Position numbers and translations under genes: made by a program
Shown here: piece after piece, positions 33,095 through 41,393 of the stretch
Layout of the letters: each line of letters starts with the position of its first letter
Position numbering within the stretch: position 1 is the stretch's first letter
The notes under the pieces: generated by a model
Database searches by the model: none
Told to the model about the DNA's origin: nothing
What the model saw: only the letters and a program-made list of their open reading frames with translations
DNA from: an uncultured Candidatus Saccharibacteria bacterium
GTDB lineage: Bacteria; Patescibacteriota; Minisyncoccia; Phycocordibacterales; DATDWN01
Reading direction: 5' to 3'
Length of the DNA: 64,000 bases
Assembly (NCBI GenBank): GCA_964426735.1
Contig: CAYRRP010000003.1
Location: forward strand, 77,378-141,377

Positions 33095-33143
33095 GTGGTA
33101 AGTATACCAAATTATTTAGCCAAATTAGTAGGAAGAAAGTTAG

Positions 33144-33291
33144 AAATTTCCACTGGTGCGGGTGGGGAGAATCGGTCACGAGTAATTCTGGTTCCGTCGA
33201 ACCAGAATTCTCTCGACCCCGACTCGCGACCCACTCTGGTGAGCGGGTGCCCCCGCTCCGTCTTTCGATTCCCCATGCAAAGCTCTGCTTT
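33144..33291 (-). ncRNA. GC-rich structured RNA-like element (el2) directly downstream of tRNA-Gly(TCC); it shares that tRNA's 5' 7 nt and 3' 18 nt and has an encoded CCA
   Basis: Minus-strand read: GCGGGTGAG-[GCAAAGC-AGA-GCTTTGC]-ATGG-GGAATCGAAAG-[ACCCGCTC-ACCA-GAGTGGGT]-...-[AATTCTGGTTC-GACG-GAACCAGAATT]-ACTCGTGACCGATTCTCCCCACCCGCA-CCA. ~60% GC. Two homologous copies sit at 37149-37496. Confidence 0.5.
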
Positions 33292-33336
33292 GCTCACCCG
33301 CACACATATCAAAAAACCGGCATAAAACCGGTTTTT
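33292..33336. terminator. 45-nt perfect palindromic hairpin (19-bp stem, loop TTTTATG) between tRNA-Gly(TCC) and el2; candidate bidirectional terminator or processing site
   Basis: ACACATATCAAAAAACCGG-CATAAAA-CCGGTTTTTTGATATGTGT. The outer base pair includes the tRNA discriminator position. Confidence 0.55.
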
Positions 33337-33406
33337 TGATATGTGTGCGGGTGGGGAGAATCGAACTCCCGTATACTGCTTGGAAGGCAGTCATTCTACC
33401 ACTAAA
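33336..33406 (-). tRNA. tRNA-Gly (anticodon UCC)
   Basis: GCGGGTG-TA-ATTTAGTGGTAGAAT-G-ACTGC-CTTCCAA-GCAGT-ATAC-GGGAG-TTCGATT-CTCCC-CACCCGC-A. 71 nt, CCA not encoded; same architecture as Bacillus tRNA-Gly(UCC). Confidence 0.9.
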
Positions 33407-33479
33407 TTACACCCGCGATTGAAATACTCTAGCAGAAAAACAAGTATTCGGCAATTAAAAATGTTATATACTTATACGT

Positions 33480-36153: not shown

Positions 36154-36226
36154 CGGGGTGTGGTGTAACGGCTAACATGCTTGATTTGGGATCAAGTGAC
36201 TCCGGGTTCGAATCCCGGCACCCCGA
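36154..36226 (+). tRNA. tRNA-Pro (anticodon UGG)
   Basis: CGGGGTG-TG-GTGTAACGGCTAACAT-G-CTTGA-TTTGGGA-TCAAG-TGACT-CCGGG-TTCGAAT-CCCGG-CACCCCG-A. 73 nt with G37. Confidence 0.9.
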
Positions 36227-36247
36227 CAATAGATTTTCTAAATACAC

Positions 36248-36673
36248 CTAAAGTATTATATCTTCCAGCATCTTTACCCTACATACTCGTTTTTCTTGAT
36301 CCACATACACCGTAGCTACATCAAACTGCCACTCCGTATCATCTGAGACATTTTTATCAAGCAAATACGACTGTATAGTCCGAGCAAGCCTCTGGAGTTT
36401 CCATGGGTGCATATTATCCTCTGGCCGATACCTATTATTCGTTTCACGTGGCACATCTTCAAACTTTCTCGATACACTCTTCACCTCAACAAAGTGAATT
36501 TTTTTGTCCTTTATAGCTACCACATCCAATTCTCCCCACTTTTTTAAATAGTTACGATCAGTCACCTTAAAACCTTTTCTCTTAAGATACGTACACACCG
36601 CTTCTTCCCCAATTGCACCCAATATCTGTTTTTGGGTTTTAGTATGAACCTTCAATGCAGCTTTTTCTCTCAT
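36248..36673 (-). CDS. yraN: YraN-family (UPF0102) endonuclease-like protein
   Basis: MREKAALKVHTKTQKQILGAIGEEAVCTYLKRKGFKVTDRNYLKKWGELDVVAIKDKKIHFVEVKS... is the UPF0102 signature. Start placed at the internal ATG at 36673. Confidence 0.75.
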   Translation of the reverse strand: MREKAALKVHTKTQKQILGAIGEEAVCTYLKRKGFKVTDRNYLKKWGELDVVAIKDKKIHFVEVKSVSRKFEDVPRETNNRYRPEDNMHPWKLQRLARTIQSYLLDKNVSDDTEWQFDVATVYVDQEKRVCRVKMLEDIIL

Positions 36674-37027
36674 ACATATATAGTATACAAGCTTAATCCT
36701 TTCACGTGTAACTATATTATATGTTACATATGTAACATATAATATTTGAGTAGGTACAGGAGGATTCGTAGTATAAAGTACACAATTTCCTTTGTATAAA
36801 GCCATTTTTGGAGACTTTTGGACACAAAGTCTTATACTTTGAAGCCTGTCAAAGACTGTCTCTAATACACATGTCCACAGACTTATCCACAGTTTTCAAC
36901 ATATTTTGTGTAAAACTGACTTTAATTTAAAGACTTTGTCCCACAGAATAGGGGTTTAATGGAGACAGTCCGTGATCAAATAGACAAAACTTGGCAAAAG
37001 CTAGAAAAAAGGTATGATACATATATT

Positions 37028-37101
37028 GCACCCGTAGCTCAATTGGATAGAGTATTTGTCTTCGGAACAAAGGGTTGCAGGTTCGAGTCCTGCCGGGTGC
37101 A
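37028..37101 (+). tRNA. tRNA-Arg (anticodon UCG)
   Basis: GCACCCG-TA-GCTCAATTGGATAGAGT-A-TTTGT-CTTCGGA-ACAAA-GGGTT-GCAGG-TTCGAGT-CCTGC-CGGGTGC-A. 74 nt. Confidence 0.88.
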
Positions 37102-37106
37102 CACGA

Positions 37107-37135
37107 CAAAAAATCCCAACTGCTTGGGATTTTTT
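37107..37135 (+). terminator. Intrinsic terminator after tRNA-Arg
   Basis: AAAAAATCCCA-ACTGC-TTGGGATTTTTT. Confidence 0.6.
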
Positions 37136-37148
37136 GCTACGTGTGCAC

Positions 37149-37290
37149 AACGGAGACATGTTTTTTCAGCAGAAAAAAAGGTCGAGTTGTGGACCGAAGG
37201 AAATTTCAATTCGACGGAATTGAAATTATCCGAAGTGTACAAGACAAAACCCTATGTATTTGAATTTCTCCCCACTTTGTGTAAAATGAA
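37149..37290 (+). ncRNA. Degenerate third member (el4) of the tRNA-Gly-associated structured element family, just upstream of tRNA-Gly(GCC)
   Basis: ACGGAG...TTTTTT-CAGCAG-AAAAAAA...GGTCGAG...AAATTTCAATTC-GACG-GAATTGAAATT...TTTCTCCCC. The GACG-loop hairpin and flanking motifs are homologous to el2 with compensatory substitutions. Confidence 0.35.
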
Positions 37291-37296
37291 GGGGAA

Positions 37297-37367
37297 GCGG
37301 CTATGGTTTAGTGGTAGAACACGTCCTTGCCAAGGATGAGATTCGGGTTCGATTCCCGGTAGCCGCA
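37297..37367 (+). tRNA. tRNA-Gly (anticodon GCC)
   Basis: GCGGCTA-TG-GTTTAGTGGTAGAAC-A-CGTCC-TTGCCAA-GGATG-AGAT-TCGGG-TTCGATT-CCCGG-TAGCCGC-A. 71 nt. Confidence 0.9.
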
Positions 37368-37370
37368 CAG

Positions 37371-37496
37371 AAAAATCGGAGATTTTTATCCGGGAATCGA
37401 AAGCCGGAGCGAGGGTTCCCGTCAGCAGACGGGACCGCGAGGCCGGGTCGGGAAATTTTACGAGTGGCGACGAGTAAAATATTCCTGACCGATTCC
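37371..37496 (+). ncRNA. GC-rich structured RNA-like element (el3) starting 3 nt after the tRNA-Gly(GCC) 3' end; homolog of el2
   Basis: [AAAAATC-GGA-GATTTTT]-ATCC-GGGAATCGAAAG-CCGGAGCGAGGG-[TCCCGTC-AGCA-GACGGGA]-...-CTGACCGATTCC. The hairpins are at the same positions as in el2 but built from different, compensating sequences. Confidence 0.5.
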
Positions 37497-37545
37497 AGTG
37501 CCCATACTCATAAATAAGGCCTCCAAAAGCCTTAAAATCACTCAT

Positions 37546-39018
37546 ATGAATACAAACTTCACTATCCCTGTCGAAGTGTCACGTGTAACACAAACCCTCG
37601 AAAATGCCGGTTTTGAGGCTTTTTTGGTTGGTGGATGTGTACGAGATCTTATCCTCAACAAAAAACCAAAAGATTGGGATGTTACTACCAACGCAACACC
37701 TGAGCAAATCATTGCTTTGTTTCCACATACCTTTTACGAAAACAACTTTGGAACAGTTGGTGTTGTTTCAGATGAAACAGAAGATGACACTCTTAAAACT
37801 ATTGAAGTTACGCCATACCGTCTTGAATCAGAGTATTCTGACAATCGACGCCCAGACGCTGTTACTTTTTCACAAAATCTCACAGATGACTTAAGGCGAC
37901 GCGACTTCACCATTAACGCCCTTGCATACTCAGTATCTAAAGGACAACTCACTGATGTCTTTAATGGACAAGCTGATATTTCTGCTCAAACTATACAAAC
38001 AGTAGGGAATGCGGTCGAAAGACTCACTGAAGATGCCCTTCGTATCATGCGAGCAGTGCGGTTTCATGTGGAACTTGGCTTTATCCTTTCACGTGAAACG
38101 GAAAAAGCGGTACTTGAACACGGTCATTTACTACAAAACATCTCAAAGGAACGCATTCGTGACGAATTTACAAAGATTATTATGTCTCCGCAGCCAATGA
38201 ATGGCTTACTCATGCTGAAAAAGCTGAATTTACTTCAGTATATTGTACCAGAACTGGAAAAAACTATTGGGGTAGAGCAGAACCGGGCACATTCATACGA
38301 TGTATGGGAACATTTACTTCGAAGCCTCCAGACTGCAGCAGATAAGAACTGGCCTCTTGATATTAGACTTACCGCTTTATTTCACGATATTTCAAAACCT
38401 GAGACACGTCGATGGGGAAAAGAGCAGAATACGTGGACATTTTACGGTCATGAAGTAGTTGGTTCACGTGTAACACGGAAAATACTTACTGATTTGCGAT
38501 ATCCGAATAAACTAATTGATAAAGTGGTGACAATGGTGCGATGGCATATGTTTTTTTCTGACACAGAACAGATAAGCCTCTCTGCGGTCCGTAGAATGAT
38601 CGTAAATGTTGGACGAGAGAATATCTGGGATTTGATGAATGTACGCATCTGCGACCGTGTAGGAACTGGTAGACCCAAAGAAGATCCGTACCGCCTCCGC
38701 AAATACCATGCAATGATAGAGGAGGCTCTTCGTGACCCGATTACTGTAGGAATGTTGAAAATAGATGGTAAACGTTTAATCGATGTTACACAGGGAACAC
38801 CTGGTCCTAAAATAGGGTATACACTTCATGCATTACTCGAAGAGGTACTCGAAGATCCAACTAAAAACACTGTGGAATATTTAGAAAAACGCTCTGTTGA
38901 GCTCTATACTATGGATGAGATCGAATTAAAAAAGCTCGGTGAACAAGGTAAACAAACGAAAGAAGAAATAGATCAGCAGGAAATCTCAAAAATTCGTAAA
39001 GGACACAAAGTAAAGTAG
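37546..39018 (+). CDS. cca: CCA-adding tRNA nucleotidyltransferase with a C-terminal HD domain
   Basis: ...FEAFLVGGCVRDLILNKKPKDWDVTTNATPEQ...RRDFTINALA (Pol-beta NTase head) and ...LFHDISKP...GHE (HD). Start placed at ATG 37546 (MNTNFTIP); the ORF-track start at 37498 would overlap el3. Confidence 0.85.
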   Translation: MNTNFTIPVEVSRVTQTLENAGFEAFLVGGCVRDLILNKKPKDWDVTTNATPEQIIALFPHTFYENNFGTVGVVSDETEDDTLKTIEVTPYRLESEYSDNRRPDAVTFSQNLTDDLRRRDFTINALAYSVSKGQLTDVFNGQADISAQTIQTVGNAVERLTEDALRIMRAVRFHVELGFILSRETEKAVLEHGHLLQNISKERIRDEFTKIIMSPQPMNGLLMLKKLNLLQYIVPELEKTIGVEQNRAHSYDVWEHLLRSLQTAADKNWPLDIRLTALFHDISKPETRRWGKEQNTWTFYGHEVVGSRVTRKILTDLRYPNKLIDKVVTMVRWHMFFSDTEQISLSAVRRMIVNVGRENIWDLMNVRICDRVGTGRPKEDPYRLRKYHAMIEEALRDPITVGMLKIDGKRLIDVTQGTPGPKIGYTLHALLEEVLEDPTKNTVEYLEKRSVELYTMDEIELKKLGEQGKQTKEEIDQQEISKIRKGHKVK

Positions 39019-40302: not shown

Positions 40303-40410
40303 GTTAAATTGCTCCAGATGCTAGGCGCGAGAAAATTTATGAGTGAACCGTACTTGTAGTACGGTGAATGAATAAATTTGAATCGTAACAACGCAGATGG
40401 AGTAATTTAC
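40303..40410 (+). repeat. Copy C of the ~110-nt hairpin-repeat family
   Basis: GTTAAATTGCTCCAGATGCTAGGCGCGAGAAAATTTATGAGTGAA-CCGTAC-TTGTA-GTACGG-...GCAGATGGAGTAATTTAC. About 85% identical to copy B; its 3' end overlaps the xerC-like stop codon by 4 nt. Confidence 0.6.
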
Positions 40411-41393
40411 TTCTTTCCGTGAAATTTCTTGTGAATGTCACGCAGGTGCTTGTCGGTTACGTGTGTATAAATCTGGGTCGTAATAATGCTCGAATGACCC
40501 AACAAAGCCTGAACTGAGCGAATATCTGCTCCGTTTGAAAGTAAATCAGTCGCAAAGAGATGACGCATGGTGTGCGGTGTTACACGTTTTGAAATACCTG
40601 CTTTGATTGCATATTGTTTGATGATGCGCTCTATTGTCCGTTTGGTCAGGGGACTTGCTTCTTTACTAGTAATTTCTCGCCCTACCTGCACAAAAAGAGC
40701 ATCATTCATATCTTTACGGAGAGACAAGTACGCCTTGAGACAATTTTTTGCAGTATCTGAAAGAAATACTACTCGCACCTTTCCTCCTTTTCCTCGAATA
40801 GAAAGTTCATCGGAAGTCAGATCAATATCAGACGTGAGGGAACAGAGCTCAGAAACACGCAAACCTGTTGAAAATAATAATTCGAGAATTGCTTTGTCAC
40901 GAACTGTCTTCAAATCACTACCTTTAGGAGCATCGAGAAGGCGAGCGAGCTCATTTTCTGTAATAAGATCAAGAAGACGCTCTCCAGTTTTTGCAAGGTC
41001 GATACGCTCAGGCGCAAGAGAAGTGACACCTTCTCGAGCAAGAAACTTGAGAAACGCCCGGAGTGCAATCAGGTGATAGTTTTGAGTTTTTTTAGAAAGA
41101 GTATTTTTTTTGGCTTTATCAAGTCCTGAAAGTTGTCTGTTGAGCCACAAACGAAACTCTCGTACCACCATATCGGTGATATCTCCTGGTTTTGAAGCTT
41201 TTGTTTGCTCAAGAAAGCGTACAAGGTAATGTAAATAGTTTTGCCGAGTCTGGATAGATCGCCCTCTTTCTATTTCAAGATAGTTGAGAAAATCACGAAG
41301 AAAACGCCCTAAGGGGGTTTTCGGTATTCTTTCTTCTTCTGTCAAAGCAGGTTTGCGTTTAGACGTCTCTTTTTTAATCTTTTCCTCTGCCAT
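40407..41393 (-). CDS. xerC: Tyrosine site-specific recombinase, XerC/XerD-like
   Basis: 328 aa; N-terminal core-binding domain (...FLNYLEIERGRSIQTRQNYLHYL...) and the catalytic R...HTMRHLFAT...LGHSSIITTQIYTHV (R-H-R-Y). Adjacent to a tRNA/ncRNA-dense region; an integrase role cannot be excluded. Confidence 0.85.
   Translation of the reverse strand: MAEEKIKKETSKRKPALTEEERIPKTPLGRFLRDFLNYLEIERGRSIQTRQNYLHYLVRFLEQTKASKPGDITDMVVREFRLWLNRQLSGLDKAKKNTLSKKTQNYHLIALRAFLKFLAREGVTSLAPERIDLAKTGERLLDLITENELARLLDAPKGSDLKTVRDKAILELLFSTGLRVSELCSLTSDIDLTSDELSIRGKGGKVRVVFLSDTAKNCLKAYLSLRKDMNDALFVQVGREITSKEASPLTKRTIERIIKQYAIKAGISKRVTPHTMRHLFATDLLSNGADIRSVQALLGHSSIITTQIYTHVTDKHLRDIHKKFHGKK

Follow-up and report, generated by a model that had tools for sequence, protein, structure and literature searches.

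The DNA considered here (the window) is a stretch of 64,000 nucleotides (nt) assigned to an uncultured Candidatus Saccharibacteria bacterium (assembly GCA_964426735.1, contig CAYRRP010000003.1, positions 77,378 to 141,377 of the forward strand). Behind one of its transfer RNA (tRNA) genes, tRNA-Gly(UCC), and on the same strand lies a folded element, termed E1, which belongs to a widespread structured family that is located at the 3' side of tRNA and transfer-messenger RNA (tmRNA) genes and is absent from Rfam 15. The coordinates of E1, its parts, and the other features of the window are collected in Table 1.

The tRNA-Gly(UCC) gene does not encode CCA and has CAC after its discriminator A. In E1, a perfect acceptor-type stem of 7 bp is accompanied by a discriminator A and an encoded CCA, with ACCA at its 3' end (33157-33154). 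The G+C content at 33150-33299 is 0.607, compared with about 0.3-0.45 in the flanks, the predicted fold of E1 has an energy of -81.6 kcal/mol (z = -6.7 versus shuffles), and the covariance model R1 scores 90.7 bits over the span 33165-33275. Both sides of the element repeat the host gene. The right arm is at 33156-33174 a direct copy of tRNA positions 56-73 plus 1 more base, which gives a 19-nt direct repeat with 33345-33363 in the gene. The left arm is the reverse complement of the same tRNA end and is split into an outer and an inner part, the latter (the guide) serving as the 5' strand of helix P1. Between gene and element lies a 26-bp perfect inverted repeat, which is composed of the tRNA acceptor 3' strand, a terminator-like A-tract, hairpin, and U-tract, and the reverse complement of the acceptor strand with which E1 starts. 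This palindromic arrangement of tRNA, terminator, and element recurs in L028, L026, L030, L048, and L119 (L-numbers label the loci that were collected from other genomes and metagenomes), and the window differs from L028 by one compensated substitution inside the 26-bp palindrome.

Table 1. Features of the E1 locus and of the related copies in the window
Feature	Position	Strand	Basis
Host gene tRNA-Gly(UCC)	33345..33416	minus	ARAGORN; Rfam tRNA 73.7 bits
26-bp perfect inverted repeat, 7-nt loop	33295..33353 (arms 33295-33320 / 33328-33353)	.	repeat search
E1, full-type copy, 148 nt	33154..33301	minus	sequence, fold, covariance model R1
E1 left arm, outer, GCGGGTG ("5' acceptor mimic")	33295..33301	minus	reverse complement of tRNA positions 66-72
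hp1, optional hairpin module GCAAAGC-AGA-GCTTTGC	33277..33293	minus	between the two parts of the left arm
E1 left arm, inner ("guide"), GGGGAATCG	33266..33274	minus	reverse complement, T-loop C56 through T-stem 3' strand
E1 core domain P2	33220..33265	minus	alignments A1 and A3
E1 core domain P3	33174..33219	minus	GGGUCG.../...GUGACC
E1 right arm ("tail"), CGATTCTCCCCACCCGCA plus CCA	33154..33174	minus	direct repeat of host
E3, decayed copy with internal deletion	37142..37241	plus	R1 16 bits, E = 0.004
Promoter-like site TTGAAT-16-TAAAAT	37260..37287	plus	consensus scan only
Host gene tRNA-Gly(GCC)	37297..37368	plus	ARAGORN; Rfam
E2, second full core copy	37371..37496	plus	R1 90.4 bits over 37390-37499

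An earlier, sequence-only reading of this locus had placed the element at 33144-33291, which is 10 nt too low. Its description of a GC-rich segment of 148 nt with an encoded CCA end is borne out by the values given above. The 19-nt direct repeat that it described exists, although not at the positions it gave, and all four of its nested helices are present, except that the third contains one G:U pair and is not perfect. The 5' GCGGGTG is there as well; what had been overlooked is that it forms the outer end of the 26-bp inverted repeat. One of the two further copies that it announced (E2) is a full copy, whereas the other (E3) is a deleted remnant that belongs to tRNA-Arg(UCG) and not to a tRNA-Gly.

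Mechanically called open reading frames (ORFs) of 66-76 amino acids overlap E1 on both strands (33095-33394) and run across its covarying hairpins; they are almost certainly not genes.

A core conserved as a folded single strand

The core of the element is a three-way junction with two irregular hairpins and can be written as ...AAAG-N-CGGAGCG[hairpin]CGCGAG-N'-CGGGGUCG[hairpin]GUGAC. In the family alignments (A1 and A3), P1 is followed by a GAAA junction and then by P2, which consists of a GNC/GN'C helix, a GGA/GA internal loop, a GCG/CGC helix, and a variable hairpin. P3 (GGKYCG.../...UGRCC) has an invariant G:U pair, a bulged A, and the second of the variable hairpins; one of its pairs is non-canonical and covaries (C:G, A:G or U:C). 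The hairpin loops of the family are CAGCAG-like and GACGG-like. In E1, the junction reads AAAG, P2 has the same two helices and internal loop with a CACCAG loop on its variable hairpin, and P3 has the invariant G:U pair, the bulged A, and a variable hairpin with the loop GACG.

Covariation, which had first been argued from the three copies in the window, is supported by an alignment of 146 core sequences. Here, 89% of the cells are paired compared with 29-48% when the partners are slid, and 597 cells show changes on both sides of a pair compared with 72-157 with slid partners, a value reached by none of 500 shuffles. The N:N' pair in P2 occurs as CG (64), AU (36), GC (33), and UA (4), and RNAalifold detects compensatory changes in 12 pairs.

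In P3, G:T outnumbers A:C by 50 to 5 (p = 2e-10), so that the folded species is a single strand of tRNA-sense polarity, be it RNA or sense-strand single-stranded DNA (ssDNA). In the arms, the corresponding counts are 87 to 72 (p = 0.27) and many other mismatches occur; the arms thus resemble inverted copies that were templated and now decay neutrally, rather than helices that are kept by compensatory change. This in turn weakens the view that the acceptor-like stem of E1 is itself the functional part. The core, by contrast, is under selection as a folded tRNA-sense single strand, which could be a read-through or co-transcribed RNA or sense-strand ssDNA.

A second, different core family was observed at L128:1422-1700, in L074, and in the tails of L174 and L178. 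It has a T-arm-derived guide of the form [T-stem]AATCGAAGACCTTGAG...GCGAAAGGTGTAC and is often nested within or adjoining the first family. L119 also has a variant core, AAAGCGAATGCG...GGCTAAG..CTTAGCC.

Arms matched to the host tRNA

Throughout the family, the tail begins at T-loop position C56 and runs for 18-31 nt through the 3' end of the host tRNA, sometimes past it; the length of the direct repeat varies between 8 and 31 nt. Tails match host positions 56-65 at 8.3 of 10 positions. The guide, which comprises the 10 nt that precede AAAG, reads as the reverse complement of the T-loop and the 3' strand of the T-stem and changes with the host (for example, GCAGGCTCG beside a tRNA-Phe with ..CGAGCCTGC, GGGATTTG beside TTCAAATCCC, and CGGGATTG beside a tRNA-Thr). 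Its identity to the sequence expected from the host is 8.7/10, and its T-stem match is perfect in 40% of the copies, as compared with 2.5% when other hosts are substituted. Further 5', at least 6 of 7 positions are complementary to the host acceptor strand in 43% of the copies versus 6.8% with other hosts. In the short type, this acceptor complement runs directly into the guide; in the full type, to which E1 belongs, the homologous hp1 lies between the two. About 40 members have a homologous AGCAAG..CTTGCG hairpin (hp1) 18-27 nt from the guide, and 16 copies are without it.

A full acceptor copy in the tail is kept by only about 40% of the copies. Behind hosts that do not encode CCA, 10/51 tails, that of E1 included, end in CCA, and most of the others keep a tRNA-like "CA" trailer. 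The excess of CCA could stem from an RNA template, from selection on the tail, or from ancestral gene ends. The tRNA genes of the window and most host genes likewise lack CCA, yet mostly have "CA" right after the discriminator (CAA, CAC, CAG, CAT), an unusually regular trailer. In nine loci (L007, L010, L041, L063, L070, L073, L086, L090, and L095), the tail harbors an extra small hairpin between A58/U59 and the T-stem copy, in the form CGA[AAGYGTACTCRC]GGTTCCC or CGAT[GCGTGCC..GGACAC]TTCCCC, which may be a further nested module.

The element thus amounts to a "top-half" copy of the neighboring tRNA in which the core takes the place of the T-loop. The way in which guide and tail follow the host indicates that the arms are templated from the local tRNA and neither carried along nor co-evolved.

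Distribution of the family

Genomes were scanned with a core pattern (one genome per species), and metagenomes with a second pattern that left the 5' arm free. The genome scan recovered 102 loci, 96 of which have the complete element; the metagenome scan recovered at least 120 loci, every one with the full element. Homologues outside the genome of the window, on whose existence the sequence-only reading depended, are thus plentiful. The genome loci stem nearly all from Paceibacteria (Zambryski-, Nomura-, Taylor-, Niyogi-, Adler-, Campbell-, Kaiser-, and Yonath-bacteria). "Saccharibacteria" labels trace to automated third-party (TPA) assemblies of uncultured organisms, and the organism of the window falls near Zambryskibacteria/Minisyncoccota by its CCA-adding enzyme.

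The elements are about 85-150 nt long and encode no protein. Apart from copies at contig ends, essentially all of them follow a tRNA or tmRNA gene of the same strand at a distance of 20-95 nt. A profile search of the collected loci yielded 278 copies. A copy lies within 300 nt downstream and on the same strand of 196 of the 328 tRNA and tmRNA genes in these loci, a fraction that is biased because the loci were found through the element itself; among the tRNAs that were not responsible for the recovery of their locus, roughly 14% have an element (a rough estimate from host counts). It had been asked whether the segment always abuts tRNA-Gly, which is not so: the hosts cover all 20 amino-acid types of tRNA as well as the tmRNA genes (11/11), the latter being ordinary one-piece genes with tag peptides. 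Up to seven model matches occur in one 12-kb locus, and the window has two full copies and a remnant within 5 kb. At L119:7000-8480 (minus strand), five tRNA genes (Cys, Leu, fragment, Lys, and Leu) lie within about 1.4 kb, most of them with their own matched element. This cluster shows how densely some genomes are colonized.

Gain, loss, and change of host

Closely similar cores are found beside unrelated hosts. A 64-nt interior is identical beside a tmRNA gene and beside tRNA-Arg(UCU), and interiors that are 92-96% identical occur beside Thr, Ser, Tyr, Leu, Val, Trp, and Glu tRNAs. In these near-identical cases, the arms are re-matched to each tRNA, and the spacer hairpins are unrelated and the host's own. 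Tandem or nested arrays are common (L022, L030, L072, L081, L088, and L128).

Filled and empty sites were compared in relatives found through the protein encoded by cca, the gene for the CCA-adding enzyme, whose leader contains E2. E2 is present in relatives at 93%, 88%, and 84% cca identity (L223, L347, and L346) and absent at 81% and 78% (L225 and L348), where 35-50 nt separate tRNA-Gly(GCC) from the start codon of cca. An intact E1 occurs in L028, L021, and L212, L224 has a decayed copy, and L225 has none; the tRNA-Gly(UCC) of L225 has retained its own terminator, and the acceptor complement is not there. Decay is stepwise at tRNA-Arg, as well as at tRNA-Gly(UCC) in L224. The loci that were found through the element contain no presence/absence pairs, because the element itself recovered every one of them. 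These comparisons show that the family turns over by gain, loss, array formation, and decay and that it spreads between tRNA species.

One locus has the core inside a tRNA gene. At L177:3351-3560 (minus strand), the core interrupts the T-loop of a tRNA-Ser(UGA) gene in which acceptor stem, D arm, and anticodon arm are perfect and G73 and CCA are present. ARAGORN calls this tRNA only once the insert has been removed in silico, and the removal leaves a 6-nt T-loop without U55; there is no target duplication. In a sister copy at a distance of 900 nt (L177:4280-4362), the core is identical, but 24 nt of tRNA-Ser(UGA) upstream of it are combined with the tail of tRNA-Ser(CGA).

Further copies and features of the window

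E2 consists of hp1 (37371-37387), the guide CCGGGAATCG (37390-37399), P2, P3, and a tail that has decayed to CGATTCC (37490-37496). It directly follows tRNA-Gly(GCC) within the leader of cca (ATG at 37546), its hairpins show compensatory changes, and E1 and E2 have GGGAATCGAAAGNCGGAGCG in common. The 19-base core pattern matches twice in the window and not at all in 100 shuffled versions, which excludes chance as its source. E3 belongs to tRNA-Arg(UCG) (37028-37102) and lies beyond the extended hairpin of that gene (37097-37148); in a three-way alignment at tRNA-Arg, L109 is fuller than E3 and L050 is more deleted.

The promoter-like site lies 10 nt upstream of tRNA-Gly(GCC), and no terminator is located between this tRNA and E2, which is probably co-transcribed with it and possibly also with cca. 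In front of E1, no promoter-like site was found, and the terminator-like palindrome parts E1 from its tRNA. In the minimum-free-energy fold predicted for a read-through transcript of tRNA-Gly(UCC) and E1, the 3' half of the tRNA pairs with the left arm of E1 via the terminator stem; in that predicted for tRNA-Gly(GCC) and E2, the guide pairs with the T-arm of the tRNA.

ARAGORN and Rfam RF00005 call only four real tRNAs in the window (33345-33416, 36154-36227, 37028-37102, and 37297-37368) and no cloverleaf at the element. A Xer-like gene lies at 40407-41393, and relatives without the element have it too. Two further repeats were observed. A perfect palindrome of 16+16 nt (ATATTATATGTTACAT/ATGTAACATATAATAT, 36714-36745) falls in the 5' part of a 185-aa ORF on the minus strand (36248-36805), the homologue of which is shorter in relatives (UPF0102/YraN-like, 130-180 aa); the palindrome thus probably precedes the true start codon. 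Within 1.8 kb, there are three copies of the motif TCACGTGTAAC, which contains CACGTG as its core (36702-36714, 37579-37591, and 38464-38476), two of them inside the cca frame; the motif could be a binding site or due to chance.

Searches and comparison with known systems

The Rfam check proposed by the sequence-only reading yielded no standard family: at the gathering score and at E <= 10, no Rfam 15 family matches the element in the window or the best-scoring member. Among the tmRNA models, tmRNA_permuted comes out best, with 18.7 bits (E = 0.87) against a gathering score of 47, and the match covers the hairpin and not E1. In viral contigs, the guide-free pattern has no match, and a 14-base pattern returned 120 loci, none of which was confirmed by the profile; annotated phages and plasmids contain no match to the element. 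Split copies, in which two core halves would enclose an ORF, were sought and not found. All-against-all clustering of the ORFs in the surroundings (about 3 kb) of the 102 genome loci returned housekeeping synteny only (such as SmpB, FtsH, and IF-2), without enrichment of any downstream gene family. A full-text literature search returned no description of the family, although one may exist outside the literature that was searched. Patescibacteria are rich in tRNA introns, but these are group I introns in the anticodon loop (position 35/36) and unrelated to the element (PMC13011429). The paper on TIGR-Tas (PMC12045711) was likewise judged to be unrelated.

Several assignments were tried and rejected. 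Kink-turn, hammerhead, hepatitis delta virus (HDV)-like, and group I readings of the core did not fit as judged by eye. For a group I intron in particular, there is no Rfam match at E <= 10, the element ends in ...GUGAC, and its length is only 85-150 nt. It is no tRNA, having no cloverleaf with D, anticodon, and T arms. A tRNA-derived short interspersed nuclear element (SINE) or retroposon is contradicted by the absence of a nearby reverse transcriptase gene and of an A-tail and by the copying of tRNA positions 56-73 only; the sole hint of an RNA template is the CCA excess in the tails. A miniature inverted-repeat transposable element (MITE) proper, with terminal inverted repeats constant in the family and a target duplication of fixed length, is contradicted by inverted arms that vary with the host tRNA and by a direct repeat that ranges from 8 to 31 nt. 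An integrase-borne island would account for a direct repeat starting in the T-loop, but no recombinase gene is enriched near the 102 loci. The comparison with palindrome-associated transposable elements (PATEs) of the IS200/IS605 type, which is not among the rejected assignments, cuts both ways: two irregular hairpins and strand asymmetry are present and the simple insertion in L177 shows no duplication, whereas the copies of the E1 family normally have a copy of the target beside them and no tnpA, the gene of the Y1 HUH transposase that mobilizes PATEs, is found near any of them.

The family shares features with several known systems; Rfam, which served as the test for tRNA-like structures, has no matching family. 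It resembles integrative elements of the T-loop class (phages, integrative and conjugative elements, and islands) in its tRNA and tmRNA targets, its 3' position, its direct repeat starting in the T-loop, and its tandem accumulation. It differs from them in that it measures only 85-150 nt, is free of genes, has an inverted target copy, and contains a folded core in place of a cargo; moreover, one core family occurs at more than 20 tRNA species with arms re-matched each time. With integron attC sites, the ends of IS200/IS605 and PATEs, and the attP hairpin of CTX phage it shares a variable sequence folded into conserved irregular hairpins (with bulge, wobble, and internal loop), strand asymmetry, a fixed orientation to the host gene, cassette-like arrays, and a non-autonomous nature. 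Unlike in attC and IS200/IS605, the outer helix of the element is built from the target itself; IS200/IS605 have fixed ends and do not duplicate their target, and attC sites flank ORF cassettes at attI.

A third resemblance is to t-elements (from plant mitochondria), mascRNA, viral tRNA-like structures, YrlA (from bacteria), and the tRNA-like domain of tmRNA, which serve as processing handles or mimics. Full-type copies such as E1 can likewise stack an acceptor-type stem onto a T-stem and have a discriminator followed by CA or CCA; they would be plausible substrates of RNase P, RNase Z, and the CCA-adding enzyme. Here, however, the core replaces the T-loop, no D or anticodon mimic exists, the mimicry is neighbor-specific and optional, and the arms are without selection at the RNA level. 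Tandem inversion duplications and quasi-palindrome template switching, which the Roth and Lovett laboratories are said to have described in bacteria, also come to mind: the order is a sequence X, its reverse complement, and X again, the first junction falls exactly at the terminator palindrome, extended palindromes are perfect, and the change between the window and L028 is compensated. Yet template switching alone supplies no homologous core at hundreds of independent loci. Finally, the family is short, non-coding, and multi-copy and has tRNA-derived sequence and inverted ends, as SINEs and MITEs do. It differs from these by the lack of a reverse transcriptase signature and an A-tail, the use of the tRNA 3' end only, host-specific inverted ends, and the lack of a target duplication of fixed length. 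Of the four identities offered in the earlier reading, the MITE- or SINE-like element comes closest to the evidence: it holds with regard to spread, gain and loss, arrays, and T-loop-derived ends and fails insofar as the ends are no fixed mimic but are copied from each host and nothing SINE-like (reverse transcriptase, A-tail) is seen.

Interpretation and alternatives

We read the E1 family as a non-autonomous mobile or duplicative element for which the T-loop serves as attachment point, and we give this reading a rough probability of 0.5. The arms would be made by a copying step at every new site. The copier could be a trans-acting host or foreign enzyme that works on the folded RNA or ssDNA; alternatively, replication might switch templates at the conserved T-loop and the terminator palindrome of the tRNA. 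The compensated palindrome change that separates the window from L028 suggests that palindromes are actively corrected. In keeping with a non-autonomous element, integrases or other recombinases, transposases, and reverse transcriptases are not enriched in the roughly 3 kb around each of the 102 genome loci. The "acceptor stem plus CCA" look of E1 would then be largely a by-product of the inverted and direct copies of the tRNA 3' end.

A number of points weigh against this reading. The analysis brought no enzyme or transposition chemistry to light, and we know of no mechanism shown to make an inverted plus a direct target copy around an insert. At the empty sites, the flanks are too diverged to be aligned, so that the exact boundaries of the insertion cannot be fixed. 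Orthologues of both E1 (window, L028, L021, and L212) and E2 (window, L223, L346, and L347) persist with compensatory changes in their hairpins, and such persistence fits an RNA that benefits the host as well as it fits a mobile element. Strong constraint on the sequence, instead of recent transfer, could explain part of the near-identity of the short cores beside different tRNAs. The loci were recovered by means of the element itself, and several of the seemingly invariant core columns were set by the search patterns; copies found by the profile only vary at these pattern-fixed columns (GAAGG, GCGCAGC, etc.) but keep GAGNCGGGGUCG...GUGAC.

A bolder form of the reading can be proposed tentatively, as we consider it doubtful. 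The family may constitute a gene-less, self-retargeting class in which the folded core (as RNA or sense ssDNA) docks at the universally conserved T-loop of any tRNA or tmRNA gene and the arms are freshly templated from the 3' end of each host. In a stronger version, which is at least conceivable, the core would itself be catalytic or direct a host enzyme and might also lead an intron-like life in the T-loop, as in the L177 tRNA-Ser(UGA). The family fails the defining tests of the systems with which it was compared, save that the comparison with PATEs cuts both ways.

Two alternatives assign a function to the transcript. The sequence-only reading had suggested a tRNA-Gly-linked small RNA released by RNase P and RNase Z. 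Such an RNA would fold into an acceptor-plus-T-stem minihelix identical to that of the neighboring tRNA, would receive or already have CCA, and would act in trans through its core (e.g., by binding a protein or as a decoy for tRNA-binding factors). The perfect acceptor-type stem, discriminator, and CCA of E1, the CCA in 10/51 tails behind CCA-less hosts with the "CA" trailer mostly kept elsewhere, the sense-strand selection on the core as a single strand, and the persistence of orthologues with compensatory changes all speak for it, and for full-type copies it may apply. As an account of the family, which is not Gly-specific, it is unlikely: only about 40% of the copies have the full acceptor tail and 43% the 5' complement, the minihelix is missing in short-type copies, in E2, and in E3-type copies, and the arms show no G:U excess and hence are not maintained as an RNA helix. 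A terminator-like hairpin usually stands between tRNA and element, E1 has no recognizable promoter, copies decay and disappear between close relatives, and a trans-acting RNA would not need dozens of host-matched versions. Alternatively, the transcript might act in cis as a switch on the upstream tRNA or on the downstream gene, with the three successive segments X, reverse complement of X, and X pairing either 1:2 or 2:3. A folded core, perhaps bound to a ligand or protein, would favor 2:3 and free the tRNA; otherwise, the left arm would trap the 3' half of the tRNA. The predicted folds of both tRNA-Gly loci contain such pairings (E1 left arm with the 3' half of tRNA-Gly(UCC), E2 guide with the T-arm of tRNA-Gly(GCC)), E2 lies in the cca leader, in relatives too, behind the promoter-like site of its tRNA as part of a predicted co-transcript, and a P1 helix that closes a three-way junction is an arrangement typical of aptamers. 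We nevertheless regard a switch as quite improbable, since no downstream gene family is enriched, the arms decay neutrally with many tails truncated or interrupted, the terminator-like hairpin usually parts the tRNA from the element, and several elements behind one tRNA together with frequent loss are unlike a needed regulator.

Three further alternatives remain. If the element were a T-loop intron of tRNA genes that is removed from the RNA, the downstream copies would be by-products of homing or pseudo-copies; the core lies exactly in the T-loop of an otherwise perfect tRNA in L177, and the richness of Patescibacteria in tRNA introns could be cited, although these sit in the anticodon loop (PMC13011429). 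This is very unlikely, as L177 is one case among about 280 copies, all others lie behind an intact tRNA, removal of the insert leaves a 6-nt T-loop without U55, group I features and Rfam intron matches are lacking, and L177 is equally explained by a disruptive insertion or a deletion fusion. Extremely unlikely is a plain attL/attR scar of a lost tyrosine-integrase island, that is, a duplicated 3' end with junk in between, which had also been considered in the earlier reading. It does explain the direct repeat, which begins in the T-loop and reaches the end of the tRNA or extends beyond it, behind tRNA as well as tmRNA genes; such repeats are reportedly the classic footprint of T-loop-class integrases (as attributed to Williams 2002, NAR). 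As a sufficient explanation, however, the scar is effectively refuted, because the supposed junk is a conserved covarying core at hundreds of loci and more than 20 hosts, an inverted target copy is present as well, no integrase is linked, and near-identical cores occur at different tRNAs. Also proposed there, and now refuted, is a permuted (two-piece) tmRNA of which the element would be the acceptor piece. This idea had in its favor only the local likeness of AUUCUGGUUCGACGG to the tmRNA 5' region and the encoded CCA, whereas the element is multi-copy and lies behind normal one-piece tmRNA genes, its acceptor has G3:C70 and not G3:U70, there is neither a T-loop nor a coding piece, "GACGG" is a family-wide hairpin loop, and the Rfam tmRNA models fail (18.7 versus 47 bits).

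Implications

If the finding is confirmed, an abundant and structurally conserved element has been overlooked by the standard annotation of Candidate Phyla Radiation genomes, and the intergenic DNA beside their tRNA and tmRNA genes would have to be reread. The covariance model can be used at once to annotate hundreds of loci. The finding poses the question of how an element without a protein gene can obtain arms fitted to every tRNA that it newly colonizes. Possible answers are a new RNA- or ssDNA-guided insertion chemistry, template switching specific to tRNA terminators, or a new control of tRNA maturation, and any of these would be of interest for mobile DNA, RNA structure, and tool development. 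If confirmed, the finding would also bear on the old idea that the "top halves" of tRNAs are tags for replication and recombination.

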